From positions 4,015-68,014 of the forward strand of contig DOJW01000004.1 of the NCBI GenBank assembly GCA_003511165.1: a DNA stretch of 64,000 bases, written 5' to 3'. Under the pieces are notes generated by a model. It ran no database searches. It was not told where the DNA came from and saw only the letters and a program-made list of their open reading frames with translations. Shown piece by piece: positions 2,843 through 62,744 of the stretch (within the stretch, counting starts at the first letter, position 1; each line of letters opens with the position of its first letter). The position numbers and the translations under genes are program-made. Source of the stretch: Candidatus Babelota bacterium (GTDB taxonomy: Bacteria; Babelota; Babeliae; Babelales; UBA12411).

Positions 2843-2875
2843 AAAGGATTTTTATGAATTTTAAGAAATTTTTCA
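2843..2875 (+). repeat. 33-bp segment (RBS, ATG and first codons) identical to 4023-4055
   Basis: AAAGGATTTTTATGAATTTTAAGAAATTTTTCA is present at both paralog starts. Confidence 0.9.
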
Positions 2876-4023
2876 GTTTTTTGGTTTTAATATTTGTTTC
2901 TACAAATTTTATTTTACAATCTACTCCACAAACAGGACCTAAAAATAAAAAAGGGGGAACAACTCATCAATCCAGATCATTACTTAACGACGACTCAAAT
3001 AACACACTTTTCGAATTAGATTTGGACAAACAACAGAAGAAACCACATTTAACACTAATCGAAAGACTTAAAGACGAATTATTCAAATTTAAAAAAACAA
3101 ATTCGCCAAGAAGTAGAAGTCAAAGCCCTAACTATTTTGGAAATTCAAATAATAACACTAATGCTCAACCAGCAAACACTCATCCTTTCCTTGCCGGACT
3201 AGATTCAACAAACTCTAAACAAATCATTTTTATTATAAATTCTGCAAAATACGAGAAAGAAATTGTTGAAATTTTAAATGAAATGGCAGCTCTTTTTAAC
3301 TCCATAAAACAAAATGATGAAGAACTATGGTTTGTGATTGTTCAAGCAAATAAATTTCTTAGAGATATAATTTCCGCTTGCGTTGAATTAAATGAAGCAT
3401 TACCAAACGATTTAAGAGTTAATTTTCATAATTTAACTATCAATTGTGATCATATTTTTAGATTCGATACTAGACATCAAGCAGGTTTTCACTTTTTAGC
3501 AGATAAACAAGATTTAGTAGTCATGCAAGATACAATAGAAGAAGATACACAATCACATGTATTTTGTGCTCATCACCATGCAAACAAAGCATGTCCTCAT
3601 GGTAAATTTTCTACATTTTTCCCACAGCATATGACACACGCTGATGTTATCGAATCTGTAAGACAAAGTTTCTACCAACTCAAAATAGCATTCGGTGAAA
3701 GCAAGTATATTGCATTCAACTTAAAATATCAGATTTATTTAGAAGTATTTTTGAAAAATGAAAATGGAATAATAACTATCACATCTGCATTTCCCATTCT
3801 TTATTTTATAGAAAATGGAAGTAATTCTCCTAACCATCCATTCTCTAAAGGACAAATTTCAACAGCTATACGAGAAGCAAAAAATAATATTGATTTCTTT
3901 ACAAGATATAAAACAGATAGAGAAACAACTATTTTAGATCTAGCATCTATTCTAAAAAATAAAAATTTAACCAAAGCAGAATCTGGAATTTACGTCGAAG
4001 TATCAAATAATCTTCTTCAATAA
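2854..4023 (+). CDS. Secreted (Sec-leader) protein with C-terminal EndoU-like ribonuclease module, paralog 1
   Basis: 389 aa. Leader MNFKKFFSFLVLIFVSTNFIL. C-terminal motifs DHIF-x7-AGFHFL, AHHH, GKFSTFFP, ITSAFPILYF resemble the EndoU/XendoU H-H-K signature. AAGGA RBS lies 6 nt upstream of the ATG. Confidence 0.55.
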   Translation: MNFKKFFSFLVLIFVSTNFILQSTPQTGPKNKKGGTTHQSRSLLNDDSNNTLFELDLDKQQKKPHLTLIERLKDELFKFKKTNSPRSRSQSPNYFGNSNNNTNAQPANTHPFLAGLDSTNSKQIIFIINSAKYEKEIVEILNEMAALFNSIKQNDEELWFVIVQANKFLRDIISACVELNEALPNDLRVNFHNLTINCDHIFRFDTRHQAGFHFLADKQDLVVMQDTIEEDTQSHVFCAHHHANKACPHGKFSTFFPQHMTHADVIESVRQSFYQLKIAFGESKYIAFNLKYQIYLEVFLKNENGIITITSAFPILYFIENGSNSPNHPFSKGQISTAIREAKNNIDFFTRYKTDRETTILDLASILKNKNLTKAESGIYVEVSNNLLQ

Positions 4024-4055
4024 AAGGATTTTTATGAATTTTAAGAAATTTTTCA
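4023..4055 (+). repeat. 33-bp segment identical to 2843-2875
   Basis: Same RBS and start sequence as paralog 1. Confidence 0.9.
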
Positions 4056-5776
4056 AATTTATTACATTTTCAGTTTTAATTTTTATTTCTACAGATTTTT
4101 TGCTAAAAGCTACTCCGCCAGACACTCCACCAGACACTCCTGAATCTAAAAAAGATGAAACTCCAAAAAGTAGAAAAACACCAAGAAAAGGTCATATCGC
4201 ATTACCTATGGATAGCGATGAAAGCTCTTCAGAAAAAGATGATTCTGAACAATTTAGCGAAGATGGTGATCCCGCGGTAAAACTCACTTTTGGGGCTCCT
4301 GGAAATATTCCAAAAGCATCCTTTTTATTCCCTCCTAAAACTACAACTCATCATAAGCTCAAAAAGAAAAAAGAAGCCGAAGACGGCGATCAACTTTCAG
4401 ATGAAGATACTCCTACAGCAGGACCTATTGGTTTCACTACTGCAAAAAAATCTGATGTTGCAAAATTTTCGAAAGGCACATTTGCTTATCTCTCAAAAGA
4501 CTCACTAGATGAAGATGACGCTAAAAGCAAAACCTTACATAAAAAAAGAATAAGCAATAGCGTCGCAAGCAGTTCATCATCATCATCATCATTAGCAGCA
4601 GCTCCACCGGAATCACATGCAAAACGTACACGCATTAAAAAAAGTCTTACTACCGCTTCCCATTCAAGACAAAAATTTTTAGATCAACAAGCAGATCCTT
4701 TTGCTGAATTGGAAGATGAAGATGATACCGCTCCCTCTGAAAAACTAAAACAAATATTAGATGCTCTAAAAGAATTACCCCTAACTCCGGGATCAGGCTC
4801 TAGCTCTGTAGGTTTCAGCTTCATGCCCTTGCCCCCAGAACAGCAAATGAGACCGCCTTTTTCGCCAATGGAATCACCGATACTAAATCATCCTATTATA
4901 AAAAAAATAGATCGTCGCAAATCCCAAGAAATAACTCTTTTAATAAGGTCTACACAAGAAGAAAATGAAAAAATTGCAATTTTAAATTTAATGGCAGAAT
5001 TTTTAAGATTCATAAAAAACAACGATGAAATAACTTGGTTTGATATTGTTCAAAAAAACAGATTTCTTCAAAATATAATTTCCGCCTGTGTTGAATTAAA
5101 TCAAAGACTCCCCATAAATTTAAGAAAGAATCTAAATAATTTAATCATCGATTACCGCCATATTTTTGAAATGCAACATCAATCAGGGTTTCACTTTCTA
5201 GGGGATAAAGAAACACTTATTCTGCCAGAAACTAAAGAAGAAAATCCTATAACACAGGTATTTTGCGCGTATCACCATGTTAGCGGAGAGTGCCCCAATG
5301 GTAAATTTTCTACATTTTTTCCTCAACGCATGTCTAAAAGAGATGTAATAGAATCTGTAAGAAATAGCTTCAATCTACATAAAATAGCATCTAGTGAAAG
5401 TAAATATATTTCGTTCGATGCACAATATAATATTTATTTAGAAGTATTTTTGAAAAATGAAAATGGGATAATAACTATCACATCAGCATTTCCTATTCTT
5501 TATTTTATTCAATTAGATCGTGAACATAATATTGCTTTAAATAATTCACCTTACTCTCCTGAAGTAATTTTAAAATCTATAAGAGAGGCAACAAAAAAAG
5601 AAGATCTCGATATTTTAATTAAATACAAAACGGAAAGAAGAACAACTATTTTAGATATAGCTCCTATTCTAAAATTAAAAAATGCAACTAAAGCAGAATC
5701 TGGAATTTACGTCGAAGTATCAAATGAATTTATTGAAGGGATAGAACAATCAGCCAGCGCGTCGTCTTCAAGCTAA
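4034..5776 (+). CDS. Secreted protein with long acidic/Ser/Pro-rich disordered region and C-terminal EndoU-like module, paralog 2
   Basis: 580 aa. Same leader and same C-terminal motifs as paralog 1 (RHIF-x6-SGFHFL, YHH, GKFSTFFP, ITSAFPILYF). About 280 aa of low-complexity sequence lie between the leader and the module. A 35-bp identical run links 5432-5466 and 3733-3767. Confidence 0.55.
   Translation: MNFKKFFKFITFSVLIFISTDFLLKATPPDTPPDTPESKKDETPKSRKTPRKGHIALPMDSDESSSEKDDSEQFSEDGDPAVKLTFGAPGNIPKASFLFPPKTTTHHKLKKKKEAEDGDQLSDEDTPTAGPIGFTTAKKSDVAKFSKGTFAYLSKDSLDEDDAKSKTLHKKRISNSVASSSSSSSSLAAAPPESHAKRTRIKKSLTTASHSRQKFLDQQADPFAELEDEDDTAPSEKLKQILDALKELPLTPGSGSSSVGFSFMPLPPEQQMRPPFSPMESPILNHPIIKKIDRRKSQEITLLIRSTQEENEKIAILNLMAEFLRFIKNNDEITWFDIVQKNRFLQNIISACVELNQRLPINLRKNLNNLIIDYRHIFEMQHQSGFHFLGDKETLILPETKEENPITQVFCAYHHVSGECPNGKFSTFFPQRMSKRDVIESVRNSFNLHKIASSESKYISFDAQYNIYLEVFLKNENGIITITSAFPILYFIQLDREHNIALNNSPYSPEVILKSIREATKKEDLDILIKYKTERRTTILDIAPILKLKNATKAESGIYVEVSNEFIEGIEQSASASSSS
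4574..4591 (+). repeat. (TCA)6 trinucleotide microsatellite inside a poly-Ser tract
   Basis: Read directly. Part of an SSSSSSSS run in the 580-aa protein. Confidence 0.9.
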
Positions 5777-5807
5777 ATAAATAATTTTATAAAAATATAA
5801 AATAAAA

Positions 5808-5836
5808 AGAGATCGAAAACATCGATCTCTTTTTTT
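5808..5836 (+). terminator. Rho-independent terminator after EndoU-like paralog 2
   Basis: 9-bp stem AGAGATCGA/TCGATCTCT, 5-nt loop, then TTTTTT. Confidence 0.8.
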
Positions 5837-5906
5837 GTGACTTAAACTTTCAAAAATGATAAATTTATACACATTAATGCAAAACAAATTTAAAAAGGAA
5901 AATAGT

Positions 5907-6587
5907 ATGATTTTAGTTTCTATTGAAGGTAATGCAGGAGCTGGAAAAACAACCTTTTTCAAGGTGCTAGAATCAAAACTTAAAGGCAAAAATATCAACG
6001 CCGCTTTTATTCCGGAACCTGTAAATAAATGGTTAAATATAAAAGATGAAAAAGGCGAAAATTTACTAGGCAATTTTTATAAAAACACCCCCAGATGGGC
6101 ATACACTATACAAACAGCAGCGTTTTTTACCAAACTAGACGCAATTATGCAAGCAGCGCAAACAAAAGTAGATTTCATCATCACAGAAAGATCGATTTAT
6201 TCCGATCAAAAAATATTTATCCCGGCAATAAAAATTGATAATAATATTTCAGATTTTGAAGAAGAAATTTACTCTCTATCAAAACCACTATTTCAAACTG
6301 TGACTCAAAATTTAAAAATTAAAAATGTAATTTATTTAAGATGCTCTCCTCAAACGGCTATGAAACGAATTGCATCAAGAGGAAGACCTGAAGAAACAGT
6401 AACACCTTTTGCATACATACAATCACTTCATGATAAACATGAACAGTGGTTAATGGATTCTAAAAACTCATTTAAAGTTCTAACAATTGATAATGAACTA
6501 GATTTTGATACAGAAAAACATGAAACACAATTTGATGAGATGATAGATCAAGTAATTAAATTTTTGAATAATCTAAAACAACAATAA
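5907..6587 (+). CDS. Deoxynucleoside kinase (dNK family)
   Basis: P-loop GNAGAGKTT, ERSIYSD and RGRPEE motifs typical of the dAK/dGK/dCK family. The start is moved to MILVSIEG, which has an AAGGA RBS 7 nt upstream. The track start at 5856 lies just after the terminator. Confidence 0.8.
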   Translation: MILVSIEGNAGAGKTTFFKVLESKLKGKNINAAFIPEPVNKWLNIKDEKGENLLGNFYKNTPRWAYTIQTAAFFTKLDAIMQAAQTKVDFIITERSIYSDQKIFIPAIKIDNNISDFEEEIYSLSKPLFQTVTQNLKIKNVIYLRCSPQTAMKRIASRGRPEETVTPFAYIQSLHDKHEQWLMDSKNSFKVLTIDNELDFDTEKHETQFDEMIDQVIKFLNNLKQQ

Positions 6588-6589
6588 TA

Positions 6590-6622
6590 AAAAAGGGCGG
6601 AAAATATTTTCCGCCCTTTTTT
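6590..6622. terminator. Bidirectional rho-independent terminator between convergent dNK and pepA
   Basis: GGGCGG(AAAA)..(TTTT)CCGCCC hairpin flanked by an A-run and a T-run. Confidence 0.8.
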
Positions 6623-6635
6623 ATTATTTTACTTT

Positions 6636-8153
6636 TTATTGATGTTTCAAAATATACTCTACAAGCAATCTAATACCAGCTCCGCTCGCACCTTTGATAC
6701 CTGGAACATCACTAGCGACTCCAGCAATATCCAAATGTGCCCACGGAATATTTTTATCTACAAAATTTTCTAAAAATAGTCCCGCTGTGATCGTTCCTGC
6801 TCCATAAGTTGATTTACCAGTATTTGAAAGATCTGCAAAATCAGATTCTATTGCAGGTTTATATTCATCATCGAGAGGAAGTTGCCATACCTTATCACCT
6901 GTTATTTGACCTGCAATTTCTAACTCTTTTACTAATTTTTCATCTCGACTCAATAAACCAGCATAAAAATGTCCCAACGCTATTTCAACAGCTTTTGTCA
7001 AAGTTGCAATATCAATAATAACAGTTGGTTTATAAAATTTTTGCAAATAACAAAGTGCATCTGCAAGTATTAATCTACCTTCTGCATCAGTACTTTTAAT
7101 CTCTGCAGTTTTACCATTCATAAATGTGACAATATCATCCTGTCGACTACTTTTACCACTTGGCATATTTTCTACAACAGGCGCAACCACAACAACATCA
7201 ACATCTGGTTTAATTTCAGAAATTGCTTTGATCGTTGCCATAACAGCTGCAGCACCACACATATCATATTTCATACCAGTCATACCAGCAGATGGTTTTA
7301 GACTAATTCCACCAGAATCGAATGTTACACCTTTTCCAACCAAACCAATAAGTGATGCATTTTTCACATCCGATTTGTACTCAACAATTATAAATTTTCC
7401 ATCTTGATCTGAACCAGCATCAACACAAGCAAATCCACCCATTCCAAGCTCGATCGCTTTATCTCGTCCGAAAACGCTATATTTCAAATTTGCAGATTTT
7501 GCTAATGCTTCGACCTCTTTTGCAAAAACAGTTGGGGTCAAAACATTGGGTGGAGTATCCGCCCAATGACGTGCCATATTCATAGCTTTGCCGATAGTCA
7601 TACCTTGAAACAAAAACTCTTCGATCAACGCTTTTTCTTCTGCCAAAACTTCTTTTTCGCCGTTGGTCAAAATAATTTCGCCACTAAACTCTTCTTTTTT
7701 ATCTGCTTTAAACGCTGTAAATTCATAATTTGCGATTTGAGCGGAAACTGCAATCTGCTTAACAATTTCAGAAATTTTTAGATCTTTTCGCTCATGCATG
7801 TAAGGAATGGATAAAACTCCAGATTTGATTTCTAAATTTTTCATTGTTTTAACAAGTTTATCAATTGCTTTGCGTAAATGATCAAGTTTTTTATCCCAAG
7901 AGATATCAATTTTTCCTATTCCTACAAAAACAAACTGAACAAGTTCTCCAGCTCTAAGACCACTCAAAACAAAACTTTGACCACATTTACCTTCAAATTT
8001 ATGTTTTTTCAAAATTTCACTTAAATGCGGATAACAATCTTTTTCGATAACTTTCAAATTTGGTGAGATAGAAAAATTTTCTTCAAGCAGGAAAAAATAT
8101 CCCTCTGCTCTGTTTTCCCAAAATGAATTTTCTGATAAACGAATTGAAATCAT
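6636..8153 (-). CDS. pepA: Leucyl aminopeptidase (M17)
   Basis: 505 aa. VGKGVTFDSGG, MKYDMCGAA and STDAEGRLILADAL motifs. Confidence 0.9.
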   Translation of the reverse strand: MISIRLSENSFWENRAEGYFFLLEENFSISPNLKVIEKDCYPHLSEILKKHKFEGKCGQSFVLSGLRAGELVQFVFVGIGKIDISWDKKLDHLRKAIDKLVKTMKNLEIKSGVLSIPYMHERKDLKISEIVKQIAVSAQIANYEFTAFKADKKEEFSGEIILTNGEKEVLAEEKALIEEFLFQGMTIGKAMNMARHWADTPPNVLTPTVFAKEVEALAKSANLKYSVFGRDKAIELGMGGFACVDAGSDQDGKFIIVEYKSDVKNASLIGLVGKGVTFDSGGISLKPSAGMTGMKYDMCGAAAVMATIKAISEIKPDVDVVVVAPVVENMPSGKSSRQDDIVTFMNGKTAEIKSTDAEGRLILADALCYLQKFYKPTVIIDIATLTKAVEIALGHFYAGLLSRDEKLVKELEIAGQITGDKVWQLPLDDEYKPAIESDFADLSNTGKSTYGAGTITAGLFLENFVDKNIPWAHLDIAGVASDVPGIKGASGAGIRLLVEYILKHQ

Positions 8154-10114: not shown

Positions 10115-10597
10115 TTAATAATATCCGTCAAGTTCGCCAGCTTGATGCAATTGATATTTAACGTTGCTTGATAATCTTTGCCATGAAATTAATTTCTGTC
10201 TTAATTCTGTCATCTTTATATCGCATGCAATCCTTGCATCTGGAGATTCCGGATCTAATACTCCAGGGCTTTTCTCATAATAACCGATTGTTTCATTTAA
10301 TTCTCGAATTGGTTTATTACAAGCAAACAATACTGAGCTAGTAATTATAGAACCTTTTTCTAAAAGAAATTCTGCTATTGTAAACAAATCAACTCTTTCA
10401 CAAGCTCTTTGCAACGGTAAAAAAAATTTTTCATCTTTTTCATCTATACAACTTGGATTTAAACTAACCAAAAATCTAACAAATTCAAGATTGCCTGCTT
10501 TGATAGCATCAAAAATCGCATGATGCACACCCAATAAATTAGATTCCCCTAATATTGAAAAAAACAAAAATGTTAATAATTTAAAATACTTTTTCAT
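10115..10597 (-). CDS. Short ankyrin-like secreted protein, paralog of 11304..11984
   Basis: 160 aa. The leader MKKYFKLLTFLFFSILG is encoded by 50 bp identical to the 11304 paralog. One ANK-like unit (IFDAIKAGNLEFVRFLV...LPLQRACE). Confidence 0.6.
   Translation of the reverse strand: MKKYFKLLTFLFFSILGESNLLGVHHAIFDAIKAGNLEFVRFLVSLNPSCIDEKDEKFFLPLQRACERVDLFTIAEFLLEKGSIITSSVLFACNKPIRELNETIGYYEKSPGVLDPESPDARIACDIKMTELRQKLISWQRLSSNVKYQLHQAGELDGYY
10548..10597 (-). repeat. 50-bp perfect repeat of 11935-11984 covering the leader-coding 5' end
   Basis: CCTAATATTGAAAAAAACAAAAATGTTAATAATTTAAAATACTTTTTCAT on the plus strand at both loci. Confidence 0.9.
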
Positions 10598-10644
10598 GGT
10601 ATTCCCCCAACTTATTTTTAATTTAATTGAATTCTAACTTCATA

Positions 10645-11292
10645 TTATTGAATAAGTTCCATAGAAGTAGCCCCCCTACTTTTTAGAAACGTTATTGTAT
10701 TCTTTAAATTTTCTATAACTTCAGATTGCAAATCTATTTTTTCTTGAAATTCATCTAAAAATTTTTCTGTAAATTTAGCATCCACCTTCATTAAATAGTT
10801 ATATGTTTTTCCCAACTCTTTAAAATAAGGCATTTCAATGGCGTTATATTTAATAATTGCAGTATCTAAAATCGAATCCCCAAAGGAGTTAACATAAGAA
10901 ACATCCGCTCCATTATTAACTAATAACTTAACCAAATGATGTGGAATATTTTTATATACTGCTACCTGCAAAACAGAAAAACCAGGTAATCTTGTTTCAA
11001 CTACGTTTACATCTACCACAACATACAAGATTAAAAATTTAAAAATTTTTTCTAAAATTTCACGCTTATCTAAATCTTCTTCGTCGCCTAATCTCTCACA
11101 TAATTTAAATAAAGGATTTACACCTCTTTCATCGACAAAATTTACAGATTCAGGATCTTCTTCAACCAAAAGTTTAATTCGCTCATAATCTGCATTTTCT
11201 ACCACATCAAAGATTTCATGATGTTCTGCAAATATGCTAAAAGCACTCCCAAGTATTGATAAAAATATTAATAGTTTTAAACTTTTTTTCAT
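10645..11292 (-). CDS. Ankyrin-repeat protein with Sec-type leader
   Basis: 215 aa. Leader MKKSLKLLIFLSILGSAFSIFA. ANK unit GFSVLQVAVYKNIPHHLVKLLVNNGADVSYVNSFGDSILDTAI. Confidence 0.7.
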   Translation of the reverse strand: MKKSLKLLIFLSILGSAFSIFAEHHEIFDVVENADYERIKLLVEEDPESVNFVDERGVNPLFKLCERLGDEEDLDKREILEKIFKFLILYVVVDVNVVETRLPGFSVLQVAVYKNIPHHLVKLLVNNGADVSYVNSFGDSILDTAIIKYNAIEMPYFKELGKTYNYLMKVDAKFTEKFLDEFQEKIDLQSEVIENLKNTITFLKSRGATSMELIQ

Positions 11293-11303
11293 AAATAATT
11301 TTA

Positions 11304-11984
11304 TTAAGCTTCTGATCTAAGACTCTTCTGAATCAAAGAAATTAGGGTTTCAAATTTATTTAACACTACACTTTGGGTTGCAAATTCAGATTGAAGATCT
11401 ATTAAACATTTTTCGTTATATTCAAGCACTCTCAAAAAGCTAGGAAGATAACTTGATGGTGTTAATTTTAAAATATTTTCTTGATGATATTTTATTGATA
11501 ACTTCAACGGCCGATAAATGATTAAAACAGCACATAGCTTATTCTCAGCAACATTTAAAACTGAATCTCCAAAAGAATTTATATAAGAAACCCTTGCCCC
11601 TTTTTCAATTAATGATGCAATGGAATCATATGAAAGATCATTTTGCACTGCACATTGTAAAACTGAAAAATTGGGAATATTCGGTTCAATAAAATTTACA
11701 TCTGCATCCGTACTCTGTAAAAAATATAAAAATATTTTTTCTAAATTTTTACGTCTATTAAAATCCTCTTCCGAACCATATATATCACACAATTTAAACA
11801 AAGGAGTAACACCTTTTTCATCAATACAATTTACACATGTACAATCTTGCCTTATCAATGTTTTAATTCCTTCAAAATCCGCCAAAACTAAAGTATCAAA
11901 AATTACATGATGCACTCCAAATAAATTCGACGCGCCTAATATTGAAAAAAACAAAAATGTTAATAATTTAAAATACTTTTTCAT
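11304..11984 (-). CDS. Ankyrin-repeat protein with Sec-type leader
   Basis: 226 aa. ANK unit FSVLQCAVQNDLSYDSIASLIEKGARVSYINSFGDSVLNVAE. Confidence 0.7.
   Translation of the reverse strand: MKKYFKLLTFLFFSILGASNLFGVHHVIFDTLVLADFEGIKTLIRQDCTCVNCIDEKGVTPLFKLCDIYGSEEDFNRRKNLEKIFLYFLQSTDADVNFIEPNIPNFSVLQCAVQNDLSYDSIASLIEKGARVSYINSFGDSVLNVAENKLCAVLIIYRPLKLSIKYHQENILKLTPSSYLPSFLRVLEYNEKCLIDLQSEFATQSVVLNKFETLISLIQKSLRSEA
11935..11984 (-). repeat. 50-bp perfect repeat of 10548-10597
   Basis: See 10548-10597. Confidence 0.9.
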
Positions 11985-12703
11985 AAATAACCTTCCATTT
12001 TTATGAATTTAGGATTTAGGTAGTGAAATAAATTCATCATTTTTAATAAATCGTGGACAATTTTACGCTGACAATCAAAAGGGAAACTTAGATGCTCTTC
12101 TAAATGAAATTGATGTTTTTCTCGTTGTTGTATTAAATCTTCTAATGAATATCCACAATATTTAGAACATTCCATATCCCTAATTTTTTTTATTTTATTT
12201 TTATGAGAATTAATTTCTTTCCGAAGCGCATCTAAAACTACTTTTTCCTTTAAATAATTTTTTTCTGCTATATCCAATACAGAATTTCCAGATAAATTTA
12301 CATAAGAAATATCTGCGCCCTTTTTTACCAATAATTCAATTAAAGAATATGAAATATCTTTATCAATAGCATATTGTAAAATTGAAAATTTTGGCGCTGT
12401 TTCTAAAACTGAATTTACATTCACATCTGTATATTTAACTATATATCTAAAAATATTTTTTAATTTTTTACGTCTATCAAAATCCTCTTCCGAACCATAT
12501 AAATCACATAATTTAAATAAAGGCGAAACTCCATTTTCATCAACAAAATTTACAGATTCAGGCTCTCTTTCCAATACCAAAAGAACTTTGCTATAACTAG
12601 CTTTTTCTATCGCATCAAAAATTGCATGATGCTCACAAAACAAATTGGAAACGGAAATTAATGCAAGAAATGCAAAAGTTAATAATTTAAAACCTTTTTT
12701 CAT
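11981..12703 (-). CDS. Ankyrin-repeat protein with Sec-type leader
   Basis: 240 aa. ANK unit FSILQYAIDKDISYSLIELLVKKGADISYVNLSGNSVLDIAE. Overlaps the next paralog by 4 bp. Confidence 0.7.
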   Translation of the reverse strand: MKKGFKLLTFAFLALISVSNLFCEHHAIFDAIEKASYSKVLLVLEREPESVNFVDENGVSPLFKLCDLYGSEEDFDRRKKLKNIFRYIVKYTDVNVNSVLETAPKFSILQYAIDKDISYSLIELLVKKGADISYVNLSGNSVLDIAEKNYLKEKVVLDALRKEINSHKNKIKKIRDMECSKYCGYSLEDLIQQREKHQFHLEEHLSFPFDCQRKIVHDLLKMMNLFHYLNPKFIKMEGYL

Positions 12704-15389: not shown

Positions 15390-16616
15390 TTATTTTGCTG
15401 TTGCCATAACGACTGGCTCTAACATCTTTGCTGGCTCTGATTTTAAATTCTTTAAAATTCTGTTCCATCGAATAAATTTTGTCCACAAATCAATTGGATG
15501 TTTTATAAAATCAAAAAACCAAAAAGATTCTAAACTATCAATCGAATATACCACAAAGCTTGCTCTGCCATAAATTCGATCTGCATCCAAAAATCCCCAA
15601 AATCGGCTGTCATAACTATTTTTTCTATTATCACCCATCATCCAATATTTACCTTGAGGAACAACCATTGGACCAAAAATATCAACGTTTTTACCATTAC
15701 GTTCAATTGTAGGAGTAAATGGCATAAGAACCCAAGCAGATGTAGAGCCAGGCTTCAAAACAACTTCTTCAGAATGCATACGATAAAAAGGTTGCTCTAA
15801 CAGATCTTTTGAAGGGTCAAACGAATAACCTATTGGATCTGATCTATAACGTAAAAATGCAGGAACTGGTAATAATCCAATTCTATCAAAATCAAAAAAT
15901 CCAGACGCTTTTTCAAGCACAATTAGCGGATATTTATTAACATAAGGCTCATCAAGTTTTTTACCATTTACATAAACAACTGTTTTACCATTTTCAATCT
16001 TTCCTTCGATAGTATCCCCTGGCAATCCGACAACTCTTTTTACAATATTATCAGGTCCAGCTTCTAAACCAACAATTGGAATAGGTAACCCAACATATTT
16101 TTGCCACCAATATTTCAATTTATTACTTTGATCAAATTTGAAAGTTTGGGATGAAAACATAACAAGATCACCACGCTGAGGTTTCCTTCCAAAGCTATAA
16201 GCCATATTATTTCCCCAAACACGATCACCTACTAAAAGATTAACTTCTGCTGATCCGGAAGGAACTTGATAAAGACCAAAAACAAAATTTCTTAATATAA
16301 AAATAACCACCAAAGCAGTAGCCAAAGCTTCTAACCACTGTCTCCACTCCGGTTTTGTTATTTCATTTAATTCTTTATAAACTTTTCTAAATCTTTTTAC
16401 TTTCTTTTTAAGTTCAGGAGTTATTTTGCTCAAACTTTCGAAATCTTTTTTCAACGAAACTGATAGCAAATCTAACTCTTCAATCATCTTTGAAGATTTA
16501 GAAATTAAATCTTCTTTTTTATGTTTTTTCCAATAATCTATTCGCGAAGTAAACCGAGATTTATTAGAAAAATATTTTTCATTCCACTTTTCAAAAATCT
16601 TTTTAAATTTATTCAT
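15390..16616 (-). CDS. lepB: Signal peptidase I with extended N-terminal cytoplasmic region
   Basis: PSGSAEVNL (catalytic Ser box), KRVVGLPGD (Lys box), GDNRKNSYDSRFWG. ATG at 16616 has an AAGGA RBS 7 nt upstream. The track start at 16637 is GTG. Confidence 0.85.
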   Translation of the reverse strand: MNKFKKIFEKWNEKYFSNKSRFTSRIDYWKKHKKEDLISKSSKMIEELDLLSVSLKKDFESLSKITPELKKKVKRFRKVYKELNEITKPEWRQWLEALATALVVIFILRNFVFGLYQVPSGSAEVNLLVGDRVWGNNMAYSFGRKPQRGDLVMFSSQTFKFDQSNKLKYWWQKYVGLPIPIVGLEAGPDNIVKRVVGLPGDTIEGKIENGKTVVYVNGKKLDEPYVNKYPLIVLEKASGFFDFDRIGLLPVPAFLRYRSDPIGYSFDPSKDLLEQPFYRMHSEEVVLKPGSTSAWVLMPFTPTIERNGKNVDIFGPMVVPQGKYWMMGDNRKNSYDSRFWGFLDADRIYGRASFVVYSIDSLESFWFFDFIKHPIDLWTKFIRWNRILKNLKSEPAKMLEPVVMATAK

Positions 16617-16666
16617 ACAAAATTCCTTATGCTCCACTCTTTATCTTTTATATCTTTTTTAAAATT

Positions 16667-47867: not shown

Positions 47868-50204
47868 TTAATAATAATCTTCTGGCGCTTCTATGATTTT
47901 AGTTTCAGGTTTAAACCTTCCTCCAAAAGACCCTAGGGATTCTAATTTAAATGAAAAAACAAACCCTCTTTCACTTCTCACAATTCCCTGTTGTCTATAA
48001 CGTTTTTCTTGCAAACCAAACGAAATGCCCCAACAATGTCCATTTAACTTTACATCTAAACGATGACATAAAGCATTTATATTTTGAAACAAAGAAATTA
48101 AAGAATTTTCAGGAGAAAAAAATTGACCTTCATAAGATATTCTCATCGCCTTGTTAGCCTGCATACTAAAACCAAAAAGATAAAAGGATGGCACATTAGA
48201 AAGCAATTGACGAATAACCTGTTCTTTTCTGCTTTGAAATACCCAACCAACATGTGCATCAAAATTTTTAAAATTTATTGAAGCTTCAGCCTCATTATCA
48301 AATATCGTAAAATTATGCATATCATATTGCTGTAGTAAATTAAAACGAAAAAAATCATATTCGTAAGAAAAATCAACCTTAAAAGGCATCAAGTGATTTT
48401 GTCCTATTGCCCTATCAAGATAAAAAAGATCTGGACTCTTATAAAAGTCATACGCTTGCCCCAAAGTTAAGCCCGCACAACCCTTTCTAAAATACCAGTT
48501 ATTTCTAAGTTCTAGCCCTATTTTATTGTTCGGATAAATTCTATCCCATTCATCGATAAATCCCCAATCATCTTGCTTGATTTTAGGAATAAATTTGTAA
48601 GTTAAAACTGGCTGAAAAAAGAAATCATTTTCGCTCTTGGTACCAATTTTGGTAAATTCTGGAAAAGCCCATTCAGCATCACCTTGCAAAAGAGCTCTCG
48701 CCGCACATTGATCATCCAATCTAATTTCACTATAAGCAGATCTATTAGTGCTAACATATGGTGTAATATAATTTGATTTACTTCTAAACTGAATATTAGG
48801 AGAAAGAGCAATACGAATGATATTTCTTTTAAATTTTAAATAATTTTCAAGAACGCCTTCATAAAACAAACGTAATGTTGAAAAATTTTCAAAAGGAACA
48901 GGTTCATACGACGAAACAACATCATTACCTACAATTGTCTTAAAAATTATTTTTCTTGATAAATTTGCATAATCAACAAATAAATCATGTTTATATTTTG
49001 CAAATTTGCTCAAGGAATAAAAATTTGAATTCCATTCAAAATGAGGAACCCTCGACCGAACCATACGCTCATCAAGCTCGAATTTACTTGTATTAGAAAA
49101 TGTAAAATCTTCTCTAAAAACTTTATCACGATCAACCTTTGCAAAAATAAGTCCATTATTTTTACTATGCCATCGACTTATAAAAGAGTTATAAAATTTA
49201 TCTTCAACCGAATCAGGTAAGCCTAAAAAATCATACCCTATCCTCTTGTCGGAGCCAAAGTCTACATTAACTAAATTATCTATTTTAAAATTTTTAAATT
49301 TTAAAGGTTGAAAATGTTTAGCCTGAATAGATGTTCGCCATTCATCTTTTGAAATTATTTTAAAATCTTCTTCTACATAAGCCTGATATTCTTTTGCAAA
49401 TTTTGTATTAACTAAGGTGTAGTCATCATTGTTTCTACCCCATCTAAACTCGTCGTAAAAAACATATCCCTTTTTATTTTTCCAGTTAACCCCTAAGGTC
49501 GTATCCATTCTTGGTCTAATTTCCCAATAATATTCTTGAGTTAAACCAAAACCCAACTTCTTATCCAAAGTAAATTTAGGAACTAAAAATCCAGATTTTG
49601 ATTGTGCTTGAGCAGGAATAACTATTTTAGGAATTAAAAAAACTGGAATATTCTTTACCCTTAAAGATATTCCCTTACCTTTAATCACATATTTATACAA
49701 CTTTGCTTCATCTGCATGCAAATGCCAATGTGGACTAGGGTGATCACAAGGTGTGTAAACTAAATCTGAAAGCTTCCAGGTAAACTCATCTCTTTTTTCT
49801 GCTTTTTTTGCCGAGATATATCGCTGATCCATTTGAATTTTTACATTATCCGCATAACCAGTTTTTTTATCCAAATCTAGATAAATTTTATCTGCAAGCA
49901 TTAAAAAGTCAGGAGTTTCAAGCTTCACAAAACCAAAAGGAGCGGCGGTCGCCTCTATGAATTGCTTTTCTTTATCAGCCTCTACACGATCAGCCCAAAT
50001 ATGAACATTTTGATCAACCAAAACTTCAACATTTTCTTCAAAAATTATTTTATTTAAACTTATGATTCTCTGAGAGACACTGTTAATTCGTACTACTCTA
50101 AAAGATTCGACAACATCCCGAACCACAGCTTTTGATTGTGATACATAAAACGAAAATAGTAAAAACGAATAAATAAATAAACGTTTCAAAATGGCCTTCT
50201 GCAA
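47868..50204 (-). CDS. lptD: LPS-assembly outer-membrane protein LptD/OstA
   Basis: 778 aa. Signal peptide, N-terminal OstA-like region, large aromatic-rich beta-barrel-type C-terminus. Adjacent envelope genes. Confidence 0.75.
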   Translation of the reverse strand: MQKAILKRLFIYSFLLFSFYVSQSKAVVRDVVESFRVVRINSVSQRIISLNKIIFEENVEVLVDQNVHIWADRVEADKEKQFIEATAAPFGFVKLETPDFLMLADKIYLDLDKKTGYADNVKIQMDQRYISAKKAEKRDEFTWKLSDLVYTPCDHPSPHWHLHADEAKLYKYVIKGKGISLRVKNIPVFLIPKIVIPAQAQSKSGFLVPKFTLDKKLGFGLTQEYYWEIRPRMDTTLGVNWKNKKGYVFYDEFRWGRNNDDYTLVNTKFAKEYQAYVEEDFKIISKDEWRTSIQAKHFQPLKFKNFKIDNLVNVDFGSDKRIGYDFLGLPDSVEDKFYNSFISRWHSKNNGLIFAKVDRDKVFREDFTFSNTSKFELDERMVRSRVPHFEWNSNFYSLSKFAKYKHDLFVDYANLSRKIIFKTIVGNDVVSSYEPVPFENFSTLRLFYEGVLENYLKFKRNIIRIALSPNIQFRSKSNYITPYVSTNRSAYSEIRLDDQCAARALLQGDAEWAFPEFTKIGTKSENDFFFQPVLTYKFIPKIKQDDWGFIDEWDRIYPNNKIGLELRNNWYFRKGCAGLTLGQAYDFYKSPDLFYLDRAIGQNHLMPFKVDFSYEYDFFRFNLLQQYDMHNFTIFDNEAEASINFKNFDAHVGWVFQSRKEQVIRQLLSNVPSFYLFGFSMQANKAMRISYEGQFFSPENSLISLFQNINALCHRLDVKLNGHCWGISFGLQEKRYRQQGIVRSERGFVFSFKLESLGSFGGRFKPETKIIEAPEDYY

Positions 50205-50790: not shown

Positions 50791-52365
50791 TTAACTTGCT
50801 CTAAAATACATTTTTCTTAAGTAAGTTTCACCGACTCCAAGAATATTCTTTGTAAGCCAATATAAAACTAATCCGGCTGCAAAATTTGCAAAAAGAACTG
50901 TTACAAATATTGACATAAACCACATCATAATCTTTTGTTTGTCATCAGAGACTGGAGTCATCTTTTGTTGCCAAATCATAGAAATTCCCATCAAAATTGG
51001 CAAAACATAATAAGGATCTTTTGAAGACAAATCCACGATCCATCCAAAGAATGGCGCTTGGTATAAATCCATATAGTTCGCAAGTACTTTATATAAAGCC
51101 ATCATAATAGGTAAATCGAGAAGTAATGGTAAACATCCTGCAAGTTGTCCTGTTGGTGAGAGATTATTTTCTTTATGAAATCTCATAATCTCTTCTTGTT
51201 GACGCTTCATATCGCCTTTAAATTTTTCTCTGATTCTTGATATTTGTGGCTGAAATCTTTGATATTTTTCCATAACATTCGCACTTTTCATCGTAAGAGG
51301 CAAAAGAGGAATTTTTATCAAAATAGCAAGGAGAATAATTGCAAGACCATAGTTATGAACAAGTCCATAAATCCAAGAAAGTAATTTTAAAATAAATTTG
51401 CAAAGCCATGAGAACCAACCAAAATCAAGTAAACTTTCTAATCGACTATCAACAGCTGCTAAATCTTCAATATCTTTAGGCCCAAAATAAAAGGAAAGAT
51501 TCCAAGTTGTTTTTTCTTTAACTTGTGCACCTTCTAAAATTGAAAATAAATTGTTATTCAAATTTTTATAATAAGCTCTTTGAGTAAAATGCTCTGTGTC
51601 CCCTACAAGCGCATGAGCAAAGTATCTATCTTCAGAGCCAAATATTTCAGGCATAATCCATGCACTGTCGGCTTCACTTTCCTTTGTGGATGTAAATTTC
51701 TTAAGAGATTTTTTAACAGAATCTAAATAAAAACCATTATTTGAATCATTTGATAATTCATTTAAAAATGGAGCTGGAAAAAAAAGTCTTGGTTTGATTG
51801 GGTTTATATTTGTACTTTTTGGGGTGAATTCCAAATTCAAATCGATTTGATAAACCTTTTTAGAAACAGAGTAAATTTTCTTAATGATCCAATTTTCAGA
51901 TTCTGCAACATACGAAACATTTATTTTATCTTGTAAATCCTGTTTATTTTCAAGCTTGTAGAAATATGGAGTCTTTTCGTCCAAAGCTAAAAGCAAGCAA
52001 CTTTCTTCTCTTTGAAAAAAATCTTTAGGGTAAACAGATTTTAAAGCCTTATTTTCTTTGCCCGGTCTTTTATTGTACTCGACCGAAGAGATCACGCCGC
52101 CAAAGCTTGAAAATGCAATTTTATAAAGCTCTGTCTCAACAGGAGTCACAATTTCTTGAACCGTAATTTTTTTATCTATAAAATCTATTTCTTTATTCAG
52201 CGGCTTTAGCTGCTCTTCTTTTGAAGGAATTCTAACACCTTGTCCCGGCTGAACATTTTCTACCACTGCCGTATCTTTTGAGTCGTTCCTATGTAAAAAA
52301 TATTGCAAAAATATAACCGTCATCGAAGATAACACTAACGTCAAAAATAATTTTTTATCCATCAA
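50791..52365 (-). CDS. yidC: Membrane protein insertase YidC
   Basis: 524 aa. N-terminal TM plus periplasmic domain. C-terminal Oxa1 core (P.Q....KYK.D..K...E.M.L.K....NP..GCLP.L.Q.PI). Confidence 0.9.
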   Translation of the reverse strand: MMDKKLFLTLVLSSMTVIFLQYFLHRNDSKDTAVVENVQPGQGVRIPSKEEQLKPLNKEIDFIDKKITVQEIVTPVETELYKIAFSSFGGVISSVEYNKRPGKENKALKSVYPKDFFQREESCLLLALDEKTPYFYKLENKQDLQDKINVSYVAESENWIIKKIYSVSKKVYQIDLNLEFTPKSTNINPIKPRLFFPAPFLNELSNDSNNGFYLDSVKKSLKKFTSTKESEADSAWIMPEIFGSEDRYFAHALVGDTEHFTQRAYYKNLNNNLFSILEGAQVKEKTTWNLSFYFGPKDIEDLAAVDSRLESLLDFGWFSWLCKFILKLLSWIYGLVHNYGLAIILLAILIKIPLLPLTMKSANVMEKYQRFQPQISRIREKFKGDMKRQQEEIMRFHKENNLSPTGQLAGCLPLLLDLPIMMALYKVLANYMDLYQAPFFGWIVDLSSKDPYYVLPILMGISMIWQQKMTPVSDDKQKIMMWFMSIFVTVLFANFAAGLVLYWLTKNILGVGETYLRKMYFRAS

Positions 52366-59674: not shown

Positions 59675-61546
59675 TTAATAAAATAAATTTGTTTTAATTT
59701 TTTCGCAAATGCGAATTTGAAATATGAGAAGTGATATTGCAGCTGGAGTCATACCAGGAATGAGCTGTGCTTGAGCAATATTTGCAGGTTTAAATTTTGT
59801 TAATTTTTGTTGTAGCTCGACACATAATCCAGGTAAATCTTTGTAATCAAAATTTTGTGGAATGTGTAAACTTTGATATCGAGAAGCTTTTTCAACTTCA
59901 CGAACTTCGCGTTGCAAATAACCTTCGTATTTTATCTCTGCATGGATATTGAGCAAAACTCTGCTATTTAATAAATATTGATACTCCAAATTATTTTGTA
60001 ATAATTTTTCTGCAAGCAGTTCTTTTGCCCGCTGTTTTATCTCATCTGTAAACTCTATAACAAAAAATGATTTATACAGTTCATCATTTCGATTTACTGA
60101 TTTTATAAGTTCAACAGATTTTTGAATGATATTTTTTTCTCTCAAAAATTGTTCATACATTTCATCACTAATTAATCCCAAATCTCTTGCATGAGGCATT
60201 AGTCGCAAAAATGTATTATCTTGTCGCAAAAGAAGTCTACGTTCAGCGCGCGATGTAAACATTCGATAAGGCTCATCAATACCGATAGTCACAAGATCAT
60301 CAATCATAACGCCAATATAACTTTCATTACGATTTAAAATAAAAGGGTCTTTATTATTAACTTTTAAATGCGCATTTATCGCAGCGACCAATCCTTGGCC
60401 AGCTGCTTCTTCGTATCCGGTTGTTCCATTTATTTGTCCTGCAAAAAATAAATTTTCTACATTTTTTGCTTCAAGCGAATGTTTTAAATTTGTTGGCGGC
60501 AAAAAATCATATTCGATTGCGTATCCGGCGCGCGCAATTTCTGCATTTTCAAAACCTTTGATACTACGAATATAATCAATTTGAACATCAAGCGGCAAAG
60601 ATGTTGAAAGACCAGCTGGATAAACTTCATCACTTTCTAAACCTTCAGGCTCAACAAAAACATGATGTGTTTTGCGATCTGGAAATCTTGCAACTTTGTC
60701 TTCGATCGAAGGACAATATCTTGGTCCAATTCCTGTGATAGCACCACCAAATCTAGCTGATCGTGCGAAATTGCTTCGAATAATTTCGTGAGTACTTTCA
60801 TTTGTGGCAGTTACAAAACATGAAACTTTTTCTTCGCTTTGCACACCATCAAATTCATAAAGAAAGTCTAGTTGATGAGATTCGTGCTGATCAAATTTTG
60901 AGTAATCAAGTGATGATTTCAAAAGCCTTGGAGGTGTTCCTGTTTTTAATCTTCCAAGTTTTATGCCCAAAATTTCTTGCAACGAACCTGTCAAAAATGT
61001 TGCAGCCGGTTCACCCTCTCTCCCAGAACTGTGATTTTTTAAACCGATATGAACAGTTCCATTCAAAAATGTACCAACAGTGACAACGACAGATTTTGCA
61101 AAAAATTCTTCGCCAGATGCTACTTTAATACCGATCACTTTATTTTTATTTTCTAGTTTTTCAAATAAAAGCGAAGCAACTTCTCCTTGAAATATTTCTA
61201 AATTTTTAGTTTGAGATAAAATTTCTTGCGCCAATTTTGAATATTTAAATTTATCAACTTGAACTCGTAGTCCTTGTACAGCTGGACCCTTGCTAGTATT
61301 TAACATTCGTGCTTGCAAATGTGATTTACTACAAAGTTTTGGCATCAAACCATTAAAAGCTGCGATTTCATAAACAATGTGACCTTTACCCAGTCCACCT
61401 ATCGATGGATTGCATGGACACCAGGCTATTCGATCTTTTTTTATTGTTACAAGTAATGTTTTTGATCCCAAATTAGCAGCAACGTATGCTGCTTCACAAC
61501 CGGCATGTCCACCACCAACAATAATCACATCATATTTTTCAAGCAT
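59675..61546 (-). CDS. mnmG: tRNA uridine-5-carboxymethylaminomethyl modification enzyme MnmG (GidA)
   Basis: YDVIIVGGGHAGCEAA, GPRYCPSIEDK, FFAGQINGTTGYEEAA. ATG at 61546 has an AGGTGG RBS. Confidence 0.95.
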   Translation of the reverse strand: MLEKYDVIIVGGGHAGCEAAYVAANLGSKTLLVTIKKDRIAWCPCNPSIGGLGKGHIVYEIAAFNGLMPKLCSKSHLQARMLNTSKGPAVQGLRVQVDKFKYSKLAQEILSQTKNLEIFQGEVASLLFEKLENKNKVIGIKVASGEEFFAKSVVVTVGTFLNGTVHIGLKNHSSGREGEPAATFLTGSLQEILGIKLGRLKTGTPPRLLKSSLDYSKFDQHESHQLDFLYEFDGVQSEEKVSCFVTATNESTHEIIRSNFARSARFGGAITGIGPRYCPSIEDKVARFPDRKTHHVFVEPEGLESDEVYPAGLSTSLPLDVQIDYIRSIKGFENAEIARAGYAIEYDFLPPTNLKHSLEAKNVENLFFAGQINGTTGYEEAAGQGLVAAINAHLKVNNKDPFILNRNESYIGVMIDDLVTIGIDEPYRMFTSRAERRLLLRQDNTFLRLMPHARDLGLISDEMYEQFLREKNIIQKSVELIKSVNRNDELYKSFFVIEFTDEIKQRAKELLAEKLLQNNLEYQYLLNSRVLLNIHAEIKYEGYLQREVREVEKASRYQSLHIPQNFDYKDLPGLCVELQQKLTKFKPANIAQAQLIPGMTPAAISLLIFQIRICEKIKTNLFY

Positions 61547-62744
61547 AAATCCCACCTACGGATGCCCAAACAGTACCTTCAAAAGGATATCTCCTAACAG
61601 TTCTTCGCAGCGGAGATTGCCATGCAATAAAAATATGTTCCAATTGTTCTCTAAGCATGCCCACTTGTTCACGAGTGACATTACAACCATCTATTTTGAT
61701 AGCTCTCAGATTTTTTGCCATTCGAATAAATTCAGCAATAAATTCTGATGATAAATTTGGATTCTGGGATATATCCAAAGCCTGAATTAATGGACAAATC
61801 GTTAATAATGTTAATAATGCAGAACCCGAAATATTTGAACCTGGAATAGATAAAGTTTTGAGATTTGGACAACTTTGTAAAAAATTAATTAAAAAATCTT
61901 CTGGATATTCAGATGTATTACTCAATTCTAATCGCCCCAATCTTTTACATAATTCTTTGTTTTTTGAAAATTCTTGCAAAATTTTTGGAATAGTAAATCT
62001 AAAACCTAAAGATTTCAAATTTGGCAGAGAATTAACAAAAGTAGCTACATCCTCCAAGGCCAAATTCGTTCTACCACAAAAATCAAACTCCTCAATATTT
62101 TGGTTCCCAACCAAAGGCTGAAGCTGTTCTTTTGTTATTTCAAGACCCAAACTTAATACCAAGTTTTCAGATTTATAAATTTCACTCGCAAGGAATACGG
62201 GAACTATGGCTTTTGATAAACCTCCGATTGTAAGATTTAAAGAATAACTTAAAATATCCTTATTTCTTTTTAAATTAATTTTCAAACCTTTTAATATAGC
62301 TTCCCAACGATCGCCTTTACTCAAAGAACAATTTAATTCAACATTTCTCCATATAGGCCTATCAGTAAAAAAACGTTCAAGATTTTGTGGAGAAAACATC
62401 ATAAAATAATTTAGACTTATACTCTCTAAATATGGGAATCTTATTTCTAATGCATTTAATTTTTCATCATCCCAAGGTCGAACTTTACAAACCTGTCCAC
62501 CCGGTAATAAATCTACTCCCGGAATTACAAACATTTGAGAATGTTGAGTTAAATTATAATCCCATCGCCTACAAACTCTTCTTAATTCATAAGCCCTAGG
62601 CACATCTTTATCAATAGTTTCACTTAAAACCGAAGCCAAAAGCTCATCTGGCAAATCACCTAAACCTGCCTCTATTTTTGATAACGGTAAAAACCCAAAA
62701 AACAGTAAAATTATTAAAAAAGTGTTAGTTTTCTTTAAAATCAT
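61539..62744 (-). CDS. F-box / cysteine-containing LRR (FBXL-like) protein with N-terminal hydrophobic leader
   Basis: 401 aa. F-box LPDELLASVLSETIDKDVPRAYELRRVCRRWDYNL. C-terminal CC-type LRRs (SCPNLKTLSIPGSNISGSALLTLLTICPLIQALDISQNPNLS). The stop overlaps the mnmG start by 8 bp. Confidence 0.7.
   Translation of the reverse strand: MILKKTNTFLIILLFFGFLPLSKIEAGLGDLPDELLASVLSETIDKDVPRAYELRRVCRRWDYNLTQHSQMFVIPGVDLLPGGQVCKVRPWDDEKLNALEIRFPYLESISLNYFMMFSPQNLERFFTDRPIWRNVELNCSLSKGDRWEAILKGLKINLKRNKDILSYSLNLTIGGLSKAIVPVFLASEIYKSENLVLSLGLEITKEQLQPLVGNQNIEEFDFCGRTNLALEDVATFVNSLPNLKSLGFRFTIPKILQEFSKNKELCKRLGRLELSNTSEYPEDFLINFLQSCPNLKTLSIPGSNISGSALLTLLTICPLIQALDISQNPNLSSEFIAEFIRMAKNLRAIKIDGCNVTREQVGMLREQLEHIFIAWQSPLRRTVRRYPFEGTVWASVGGIYA

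Follow-up and report, generated by a model that had tools for sequence, protein, structure and literature searches.

Bacterial EndoU toxins (PF14436/Tox-EndoU), such as CdiA-CT STECO31 (PDB 5HKQ) and the tips of Rhs proteins, carry the motif set H...G-x-H...K-x-S-T-F-F-P...[ST]-A-[FY]-P, and the active residues of the CdiA-CT STECO31 toxin are H187, H204, K261, and T262 (PMC9086364). XendoU/PP11 (PDB 2C1W) and nidovirus Nsp15 NendoU belong to the same superfamily and share its His-His-Lys chemistry. For toxin domains that occur without immunity genes in endosymbionts, a role as host-directed effectors has been proposed (Zhang et al. 2012, PMC3482391). Here we describe a two-gene operon with a homologous core and the same motif set, located in a 64,000-nucleotide stretch of Candidatus Babelota contig DOJW01000004.1 (the whole stretch is referred to below as the window). 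Unlike the CdiA, Rhs, and LXG EndoU toxins, the proteins of this operon and their clade have no delivery region and no immunity gene, continue for about 80 amino acids (aa) after the toxin domain, and occupy a fixed locus. On balance, we think it probable that the operon encodes exported EndoU ribonucleases (RNases) of a distinct clade that work without immunity, and that their substrate would most likely be host RNA, attacked by an effector or in scavenging.

The window has a base composition of 28-37% GC and was read as core chromosome of Candidatus Dependentiae (TM6). The first-pass annotation, made from the sequence letters, had described two + strand genes 10 bp apart, and the open reading frame (ORF) list bears this out: paralog 1 (2854-4023, + strand, 389 aa) and paralog 2 (4034-5776, + strand, 580 aa) are separated by an intergenic gap of exactly that length. 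Both have exact matches at NCBI that are named hypothetical proteins, DEO28_03225 (P0002) for paralog 1 and DEO28_03220 (P0001) for paralog 2, and the latter entry carries a precomputed PF14436 assignment. The conserved C-terminal modules of the two proteins, whose length had been put at about 270 aa, aligned over 290 residues with 56% identity (E 5e-104).

The Pfam family PF14436 (EndoU_bacteria) matched residues 200-315 of paralog 1 with 25.3 bits, equal to the gathering cut-off of 25.3, and residues 376-488 of paralog 2 with 31.1 bits (33.8 bits with the trimmed domain). It was also matched individually by 18 of 20 clade members, which showed no other Pfam match. We compared an alignment of the 20 profile matches that share the architecture (A2) with one of 12 canonical bacterial EndoU domains, both Rhs-linked and small secreted (A4), using hhalign, which returned a probability of 99.5% (E 4e-22, 119 columns) with the catalytic motifs in register. 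The first-pass annotation had named signatures of both the bacterial and the eukaryotic families; the bacterial assignment stood, whereas the Pfam XendoU family (PF09412) matched neither protein even at E<=10.

The invariant columns of the 20-member alignment are the His of H-I-F, G-x-H, the Lys and Ser of K-x-S-T-F-F-P, the Glu of Y-I-E, and the Pro of S-A-F-P, with H16, G25, H27, K64, S66, P70, E110, and P127 as the invariant residues in model numbering. The EndoU core of paralog 1 (aa 200-315, 3451-3798, +) contains H200, H213, K251, S253/T254, E297, and S311-A-F-P314, and that of paralog 2 (aa 376-488, 5159-5497, +) contains H376, H387, K424, S426/T427, E470, and S484-A-F-P487. The His/His/Lys catalytic motifs and the [ST]-A-[FY]-P strand are intact in both paralogs. 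The motifs originally listed, H-I-F, G-F-H-F-L, G-K-F-S-T-F-F-P, and I-T-S-A-F-P-I, are all present, but the spacing between H-I-F and G-F-H, given as six to seven residues, is seven in paralog 1 and five in paralog 2; the HH doublet listed with them is kept in the closest relatives but not across the family alignment. By analogy with the superfamily, the paralogs should be metal-independent endoribonucleases that leave 2',3'-cyclic phosphate ends.

A structure model based on the two sequences reached a predicted local distance difference test (pLDDT) score of 41.6 and was unusable; it was replaced by an AlphaFold2 (AF2) model of the paralog 2 core and extension, built on the 20-sequence alignment, with a pLDDT of 87.5 and a predicted template modelling score (pTM) of 0.86. 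Sequence searches of the PDB with the single protein and with the family profile gave no significant match, and the BFVD viral library gave no match.

To place the two proteins among their relatives, we searched 1.84 billion representative proteins exhaustively with HMMER, using a profile built from both paralogs. Only 23 matches were found, mostly of the same architecture. P0018, P0019, and P0021 are classic polymorphic toxins that end right after S-A-F-P, with Rhs core motifs in P0019 and P0021. The other relatives combine a disordered N-terminus rich in Ser, Pro, Asp, Glu, and Lys (100-340 aa), the EndoU core, and a C-terminal extension of about 80 aa with the terminal motif h-h-h-D-h-A ... 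G-I-Y-h-x-h. A degenerate DNA pattern running from K-[FY]-S-T-F-F-P to S-A-F-P, which in the window matched the two paralogs only (0 matches expected by chance), identified 91 loci in 185,579 species-representative genomes. Among these loci, 52 canonical ORFs encode mostly Sec-leader proteins of 170-250 aa, many from Granulosicoccaceae; they stop no more than about 20 aa past S-A-F-P (most of them 2-6 aa) and match profile positions 8-128 only. L044, L045, L084, L086, and L093, by comparison, continue for 69-79 residues beyond the canonical end and match the full profile, and post-core length in clade members ranges from 69 to 90 aa. The two paralogs belong to a small, distinct EndoU clade built of a disordered N-terminus, the core, and an extension not found in canonical toxins. 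The pattern also matched Candidatus Heimdallarchaeum at L011 and L020, where the translation filter recovered no in-frame ORF with EndoU motifs; these two matches are probably due to chance. A search of genome contigs with paralog-specific N-terminal patterns found no relatives.

The extension had been overlooked in the first-pass annotation, which let the module end at I-T-S-A-F-P-I; in fact, a conserved extension of 75-95 aa follows. In paralog 1 it comprises aa 316-389 (3799-4020, +) and ends TTILDLA...GIYVEV according to the family alignments; in paralog 2 it comprises aa 489-580 (5498-5773, +) and is delimited by family conservation and by the AF2 model as an alpha/beta element. Its conserved residues are D181, A183, G197, and Y199 in model numbering, and the corresponding model blocks (131-209) have pLDDT values of 79-96. 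The extension is predicted to be an alpha/beta unit that forms one globule with the core. No Pfam family covered it in the clade members scanned, and a profile search with the extension alone returned a 58-aa fragment only, with no other protein contexts. Two candidate origins were rejected: for a fused immunity domain, hhalign against the family of ORFs of about 105 aa found downstream of canonical EndoU genes (described below) gave 0.1% probability, and for a duplicated EndoU/BECR unit it gave 1.5% probability.

Analysis with Pfam and NCBIfam at E<=10 found no delivery or trafficking domain (Rhs, filamentous/FHA, PAAR, LXG) in either protein, in agreement with the initial statement that an Rhs, filamentous, or CdiA-type region is missing. 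The lack of a downstream immunity gene was likewise confirmed: within or beside the operon, on either strand, there is no credible small ORF, the genes being followed by a terminator and then a deoxynucleoside kinase (dNK) gene, and none of nine related loci shows a conserved downstream immunity-like ORF. The downstream genes in the relatives are convergent housekeeping genes (P-type ATPase, pepA, YebC, M16 peptidase) or a non-conserved larger gene; L045 alone has a 112-aa ORF downstream, which has no Pfam match. The positive control came from canonical Sec-EndoU loci, 17 of which have an ORF of about 105 aa in common immediately downstream, as expected for an immunity gene. Because no conserved ORF is found in the relatives while the control loci show one, the missing immunity gene characterizes the clade as a whole rather than reflecting incomplete annotation. 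Furthermore, the proteins do not end with the toxin domain, and four Dependentiae genomes share the synteny of the locus, which is not a variable cassette. Many bacterial EndoU proteins consist of a signal peptide and EndoU with no delivery domain, so leader plus EndoU alone is not remarkable; the unusual feature is that an extension, a disordered region, and a missing immunity gene come with it.

The control ORF itself has the consensus M..L.FYRDE.G.P...G.D.RL..F..TD.Q.S... and no Pfam match. The loci that carry it include L005, L021, L051, L058, L064, L067, L074, L080, L082, L083, and L090 and come mostly from free-living Granulosicoccaceae. It is probably an undescribed family of EndoU immunity proteins.

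To examine whether the locus is conserved, we compared gene neighborhoods. In the window, the operon is preceded by NurA and a PQ-loop gene (both - strand) and followed by the dNK gene (+) and then by pepA, sufU, and sufS (all - strand). For the nearest relative, P0003 (L003), the contig has 35% GC, and the gene is flanked by a PQ-loop gene and by a convergent pepA with 64% identity; P0006 (L096) and P0007 (L098) are encoded between NurA and convergent pepA-sufU-sufS on contigs of 40% and 50% GC, with neighbors that are 40-69% identical. The identity of pepA across the three loci is 50-64%. Since the NurA..pepA-sufU-sufS setting is kept in L003, L096, and L098, the EndoU gene is a positional ortholog across deeply diverged Dependentiae. 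The first-pass annotation had proposed a survey of copy number and neighbors in related genomes: L003, L096, and L098 have a single copy each, with pepA-sufU-sufS beside those of L096 and L098 and pepA beside that of L003, whereas the window genome has a tandem pair.

Outside these genomes, clade members were found in Chlamydiae-type and unclassified contigs. L045, a metagenome-assembled genome (MAG) labelled Chlamydiae, has a member (5664-6671) beside a Pmp-like protein of 1221 aa, and L097, an NCBI MAG contig, has a SWIB-domain neighbor, which we take to be characteristic of Chlamydiae. L086 ("Verrucomicrobia bacterium SZAS-7", labelled as belonging to the Planctomycetes-Verrucomicrobia-Chlamydiae group, PVC) is syntenic with the unclassified L044 and L084 in a transaldolase-EndoU order, which is a second conserved synteny, unlike that of the Dependentiae. 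In L044 (3840-6020), L086 (1737-3903), and L084, the member directly follows two genes identified by eye, one transaldolase-like and the other a small zinc-ribbon-like ORF, and it is followed in L044 and L084 by a gene for a signal-peptide protein of 367-376 aa. Further members lie on the unclassified contigs L001/L002, L093, and L095, and Pfam and NCBIfam analysis of the neighbors of L001 and L093 gave nothing lineage-specific. The members with an assigned lineage are thus those of Dependentiae (window, L003, L096, and L098), Chlamydiae-type genomes (L045 and L097), and the PVC-labelled L086, with L001, L044, L084, and L093 unclassified; among the 91 pattern matches, no cultured free-living genome holds a clade member. 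L093 (bacterium O_S4.2_bin.6, 39% GC) carries tandem members (4035-5009 and 5105-6385) with divergent N-termini, a duplication that is independent of and parallel to that in the window. Sec-type leaders are present in both window proteins, P0003, P0007, and P0009, and P0006 is ambiguous, whereas the Chlamydiae-type and unclassified members have no signal peptide. In Dependentiae, the clade is conserved both vertically and in position, and it has leaderless counterparts in Chlamydiae-type genomes.

The leaders of the window proteins were judged by inspection. That of paralog 1 (2854-2922, +) reads MNFKKFFSFLVLIFVSTNFILQS, with a putative cleavage site before TPQ, and that of paralog 2 (4034-4111, +) reads MNFKKFFKFITFSVLIFISTDFLLKA, with a putative site before TPPD, so that the c-regions end LQS|TP and LKA|TP, respectively. 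Both have two Lys among the first five residues, a hydrophobic core (mean 15-aa Kyte-Doolittle values of 2.28 for paralog 1 and 2.07 for paralog 2), no Cys or lipobox, and no further transmembrane-like segment. These characteristics agree with the hydrophobic leaders noted at the outset, and both leaders appear to fit the tripartite type handled by the Sec pathway and signal peptidase I (SPase I). The window also encodes components of this machinery, namely signal peptidase I (Peptidase_S26, 15390-16637) and YidC (50791-52365).

Between leader and core, the two paralogs differ in length and share a helical pre-domain. In paralog 1, a low-complexity linker defined by composition and without a Pfam match (aa 24-105, 2923-3168, +) leads to this pre-domain (aa 106-199, 3169-3450, +), which was delimited by the paralog alignment and by helices in the first model (pLDDT 55-73). 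In paralog 2, a disordered region (aa 27-281, 4112-4876, +) precedes the equivalent pre-domain (aa 282-375, 4877-5158, +), delimited from the paralog alignment and the first model. The pre-domain is also partly shared with the Dependentiae orthologs, and the hidden Markov model matches in P0003, P0006, and P0007 begin inside it. The composition of the paralog 2 disordered region (S 15%, P 11%, D+E 16%, K+R 15%) and its basic clusters KKKK and KRTRIKK substantiate the acidic, Ser/Pro-rich stretch with basic clusters reported earlier; Pfam gave spurious sub-threshold matches only. Its elements follow in the order leader, TP-basic cluster (TPKSRKTPRK), and acidic Ser cluster (DSDESSSEKDDSE).

Two short motifs recur in the pre-core regions of the clade. 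[ST]-P-x(0-2)-[KR], exemplified by TPKRK, SPVKKRR, SPRK, and TPKK, occurs 75 times in 25 clade members, against 20.4 +/- 4.3 (maximum 35) in composition-preserving shuffles. [RK]-F-[WFY]-x-S followed by a Ser/Asp/Glu-rich run occurs in about 13 of the 25 (P<=0.025 against shuffles), just past the leader where there is one and otherwise near the N-terminus; examples are GRFWGGSSSSDSDSD, SKFWATGSDSD, and GRFFRSDSSDSSSSD, and the carriers are P0003, P0004, P0006, P0007, P0009, P0020, P0022, P0023, the L044 member at 4878-6020, L045, and both copies of L093. In the window proteins, neither motif is individually significant, and [RK]-F-[WFY]-x-S is absent or degenerate in both, although paralog 2 retains the same succession of elements. 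We assume that [ST]-P-x-[KR] is like eukaryotic SPKK, cyclin-dependent kinase (CDK)-site, or nuclear localization signal (NLS) motifs, and that the F-W-acidic motif is like acidic-cluster motifs, a likeness that prompts, but does not prove, the bolder reading given below.

At the nucleotide level, the two gene starts are identical over 33 nt (AAAGGATTTTTATGAATTTTAAGAAATTTTTCA), as had been reported. The ribosome-binding site and start segment of paralog 1 (2843-2875, +) contains an AAAGGA Shine-Dalgarno-like sequence, the ATG at 2854, and the first 7 codons, and that of paralog 2 (4023-4055, +) consists of the 10-bp gap and the first codons. Further identical runs of 35 and 36 nt lie inside the paralog genes. 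Since identical runs of 33-36 nt recur in the genes, the shared start reflects conservation after duplication and is not a special element. Gene conversion as its source was rejected, given the similar runs elsewhere, uniformly high codon identity at conserved residues, and the AT-rich genome.

The operon is closed by a hairpin intrinsic terminator at 5804-5834 (no strand assigned; -15.9 kcal/mol, z -5.9). The strong terminator predicted from the letters is therefore real, although its coordinates of 5808-5836 were a few bases off. An A-tract borders the hairpin on one flank and a T-tract on the opposite flank, so it may act bidirectionally. The dNK gene (5856-6587, +) lies between the EndoU operon and pepA in the window genome only; it is not present at the syntenic loci L003, L096, and L098 and is either a lineage-specific insertion or has been lost elsewhere. 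As a conserved functional partner it was rejected because it is missing from the syntenic loci. Between the convergent dNK and pepA genes, positions 6583-6628 form a perfect palindromic hairpin with a 20-bp stem (AATAATAAAAAAGGGCGGAAAATATTTTCCGCCCTTTTTTATTATT), which looks like a bidirectional terminator. Elsewhere in the window, four successive small ORFs (160, 215, 226, and 240 aa) lie at 10115-12703 (- strand), three of them with weak sub-threshold ankyrin-repeat matches; they may represent divergent ankyrin-type proteins for host interaction, arrayed as a tandem family, as is typical of Dependentiae. The large - strand ORFs 47868-50204 (778 aa), 61539-62744 (401 aa), and 62829-63842 (337 aa) lack Pfam matches at E<=1e-4.

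Under the explanation we favor, the Sec/SPase I leader would carry each protein across the inner membrane unfolded, so that it would fold outside the cytoplasm only, where the EndoU core would cleave host-derived RNA. The role would be that of an effector damaging or reprogramming host RNA or of a scavenging RNase feeding obligatory nucleoside salvage. In the window genome, an ancestral single gene would have been duplicated and its N-terminal region diversified. No immunity protein would be needed because of this export route and because there is no domain for bacterial re-entry. The first-pass annotation had called the protection of the producer unexplained, but Sec export of an unfolded precursor without a route of re-entry is sufficient in principle. 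Its proposal of a host-directed RNase family fits the distribution in Dependentiae and Chlamydiae-type genomes, with action on host RNA being what we infer. In Chromulinavorax destructans, a cultured member of the Dependentiae, Sec is the export route, signal peptides occur in 44% of coding sequences, nucleases and proteinases are enriched among the secreted proteins, for which outer-membrane vesicles have been suggested as carriers, and nucleotides derive solely from host nucleoside salvage (PMC6561590).

The fold evidence is weak: XendoU was the top Foldseek PDB match of the model, but the match was not significant (E 0.04, TM 0.33). A rival explanation is a periplasmic or membrane-anchored enzyme with an endogenous role, such as turnover of envelope-associated RNA or protection from imported nucleic acid, whose leader would be a signal anchor and which would never be delivered to the host. 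In its favor, the gene is syntenic and has housekeeping genes as neighbors, the window yielded no outer-membrane translocation system, and L-Q-S / L-K-A at -3 to -1 departs from the textbook A-x-A. We regard such an enzyme as unlikely, given that the periplasm is not expected to contain an RNA substrate, that hypervariable disordered N-termini of 80-340 aa and leaderless Chlamydiae-type homologs do not fit it, and that tandem duplication with N-terminal diversification, seen in the window and in L093, is a pattern typical of host-interaction genes. An interbacterial polymorphic toxin whose immunity gene is located elsewhere or has been lost seems very improbable. PF14436 is predominantly a polymorphic-toxin domain and the nearest matches outside the clade, P0019 and P0021, are Rhs-linked EndoU tips; however, the operon has no delivery domain, its toxin domain is followed by further sequence, and neither it nor the nine related loci offer the immunity ORF that canonical loci carry. 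Vertical inheritance at a fixed chromosomal site, as opposed to a variable cassette, and an obligate intracellular life with few bacterial competitors also speak against it.

Purely nutritional scavenging, in which the RNases would break down host RNA in bulk and non-specifically within the vacuole, the periplasm, or material from lysed host cells, to oligonucleotides that would supply salvage after further processing to nucleosides, with no specific manipulation of the host, is a sub-variant of the favored explanation and remains a conceivable, if less probable, account. Dependentiae live on salvaged host nucleosides and have a nuclease-enriched secretome (PMC6561590), and positional and vertical conservation across the phylum fits core physiology. 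The dNK gene immediately downstream on the same strand would fit as well, but this adjacency is unique to the window genome and the terminator lies between. EndoU enzymes, moreover, are endonucleases that yield cyclic-phosphate oligomers rather than nucleosides, Chlamydiae-type members have no signal peptides, and long, fast-evolving disordered N-termini enriched in [ST]-P-x-[KR] and F-W-acidic-Ser motifs are hard to reconcile with a digestive enzyme. The effector role is slightly favored over nucleoside scavenging on account of the hypervariable disordered N-termini, the two duplications with N-terminal diversification, and the leaderless Chlamydiae-type homologs. A bolder version, which we consider doubtful, would make the clade an ancient effector common to two phyla, Dependentiae and Chlamydiota, delivered through Sec in the former and probably through type III secretion in the latter; N-terminal mimicry of eukaryotic motifs would route the RNase to, for example, the host nucleus or nucleolus, and the extension would make its activity dependent on a host factor or host RNA, hence the missing immunity. 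If this were true, the window paralogs would be one warhead with two addresses.

We know of no molecular effector characterised from the Dependentiae, which are widespread, almost uncultured protist parasites. The locus offers a testable candidate, a conserved and putatively exported RNase with known catalytic chemistry and mutable active-site residues, for which cleaved host RNA bearing cyclic-phosphate ends would be a clear read-out. As a sub-family that departs from the toxin-immunity paradigm through its extension and lack of an immunity gene, and that is common to Dependentiae and Chlamydiae-type bacteria, it could reveal how domains of interbacterial toxins turn host-directed and what replaces immunity.

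Comparison with the described systems sets the clade apart in several respects. Small Sec-leader EndoU proteins (P0027-P0037 and about 40 Granulosicoccaceae loci) likewise consist of a signal peptide and EndoU with no delivery domain, but, unlike the clade, they are 170-250 aa long, have no long disordered region, and end 2-6 aa past S/T-A-F/Y-P; 17 of them are followed by the ORF of about 105 aa, which the window clade does not have. Relative to XendoU, the additional elements of the clade are C-terminal to the core and not N-terminal. The "endoU" of C. destructans, mentioned once in the context of host biopolymer breakdown and classed as cytoplasmic, can be likened to the window proteins by annotation only (Deeg et al. 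2019, PMC6561590). The OTU, REase-8/9, and Ntox19 effectors of Wolbachia, Amoebophilus, and Parachlamydia are also toxin domains without immunity in intracellular bacteria that have been read as host-directed (PMC3482391). Those effectors are ankyrin- or repeat-rich giant proteins, however, whereas delivery of the window clade would begin with Sec. Zhang et al. (2012, PMC3482391) listed Tox-EndoU for chlamydiae and did not describe an EndoU effector clade of such architecture, and no EndoU clade with the core-plus-extension architecture is described in the literature we found on the topic. The advance is modest, since the underlying idea dates from 2012 and the domain is already recognized by Pfam; what is new here is best filed as an immunity-less, extension-bearing EndoU clade in apparently host-associated bacteria, tandemly duplicated and Sec-leadered in the window.

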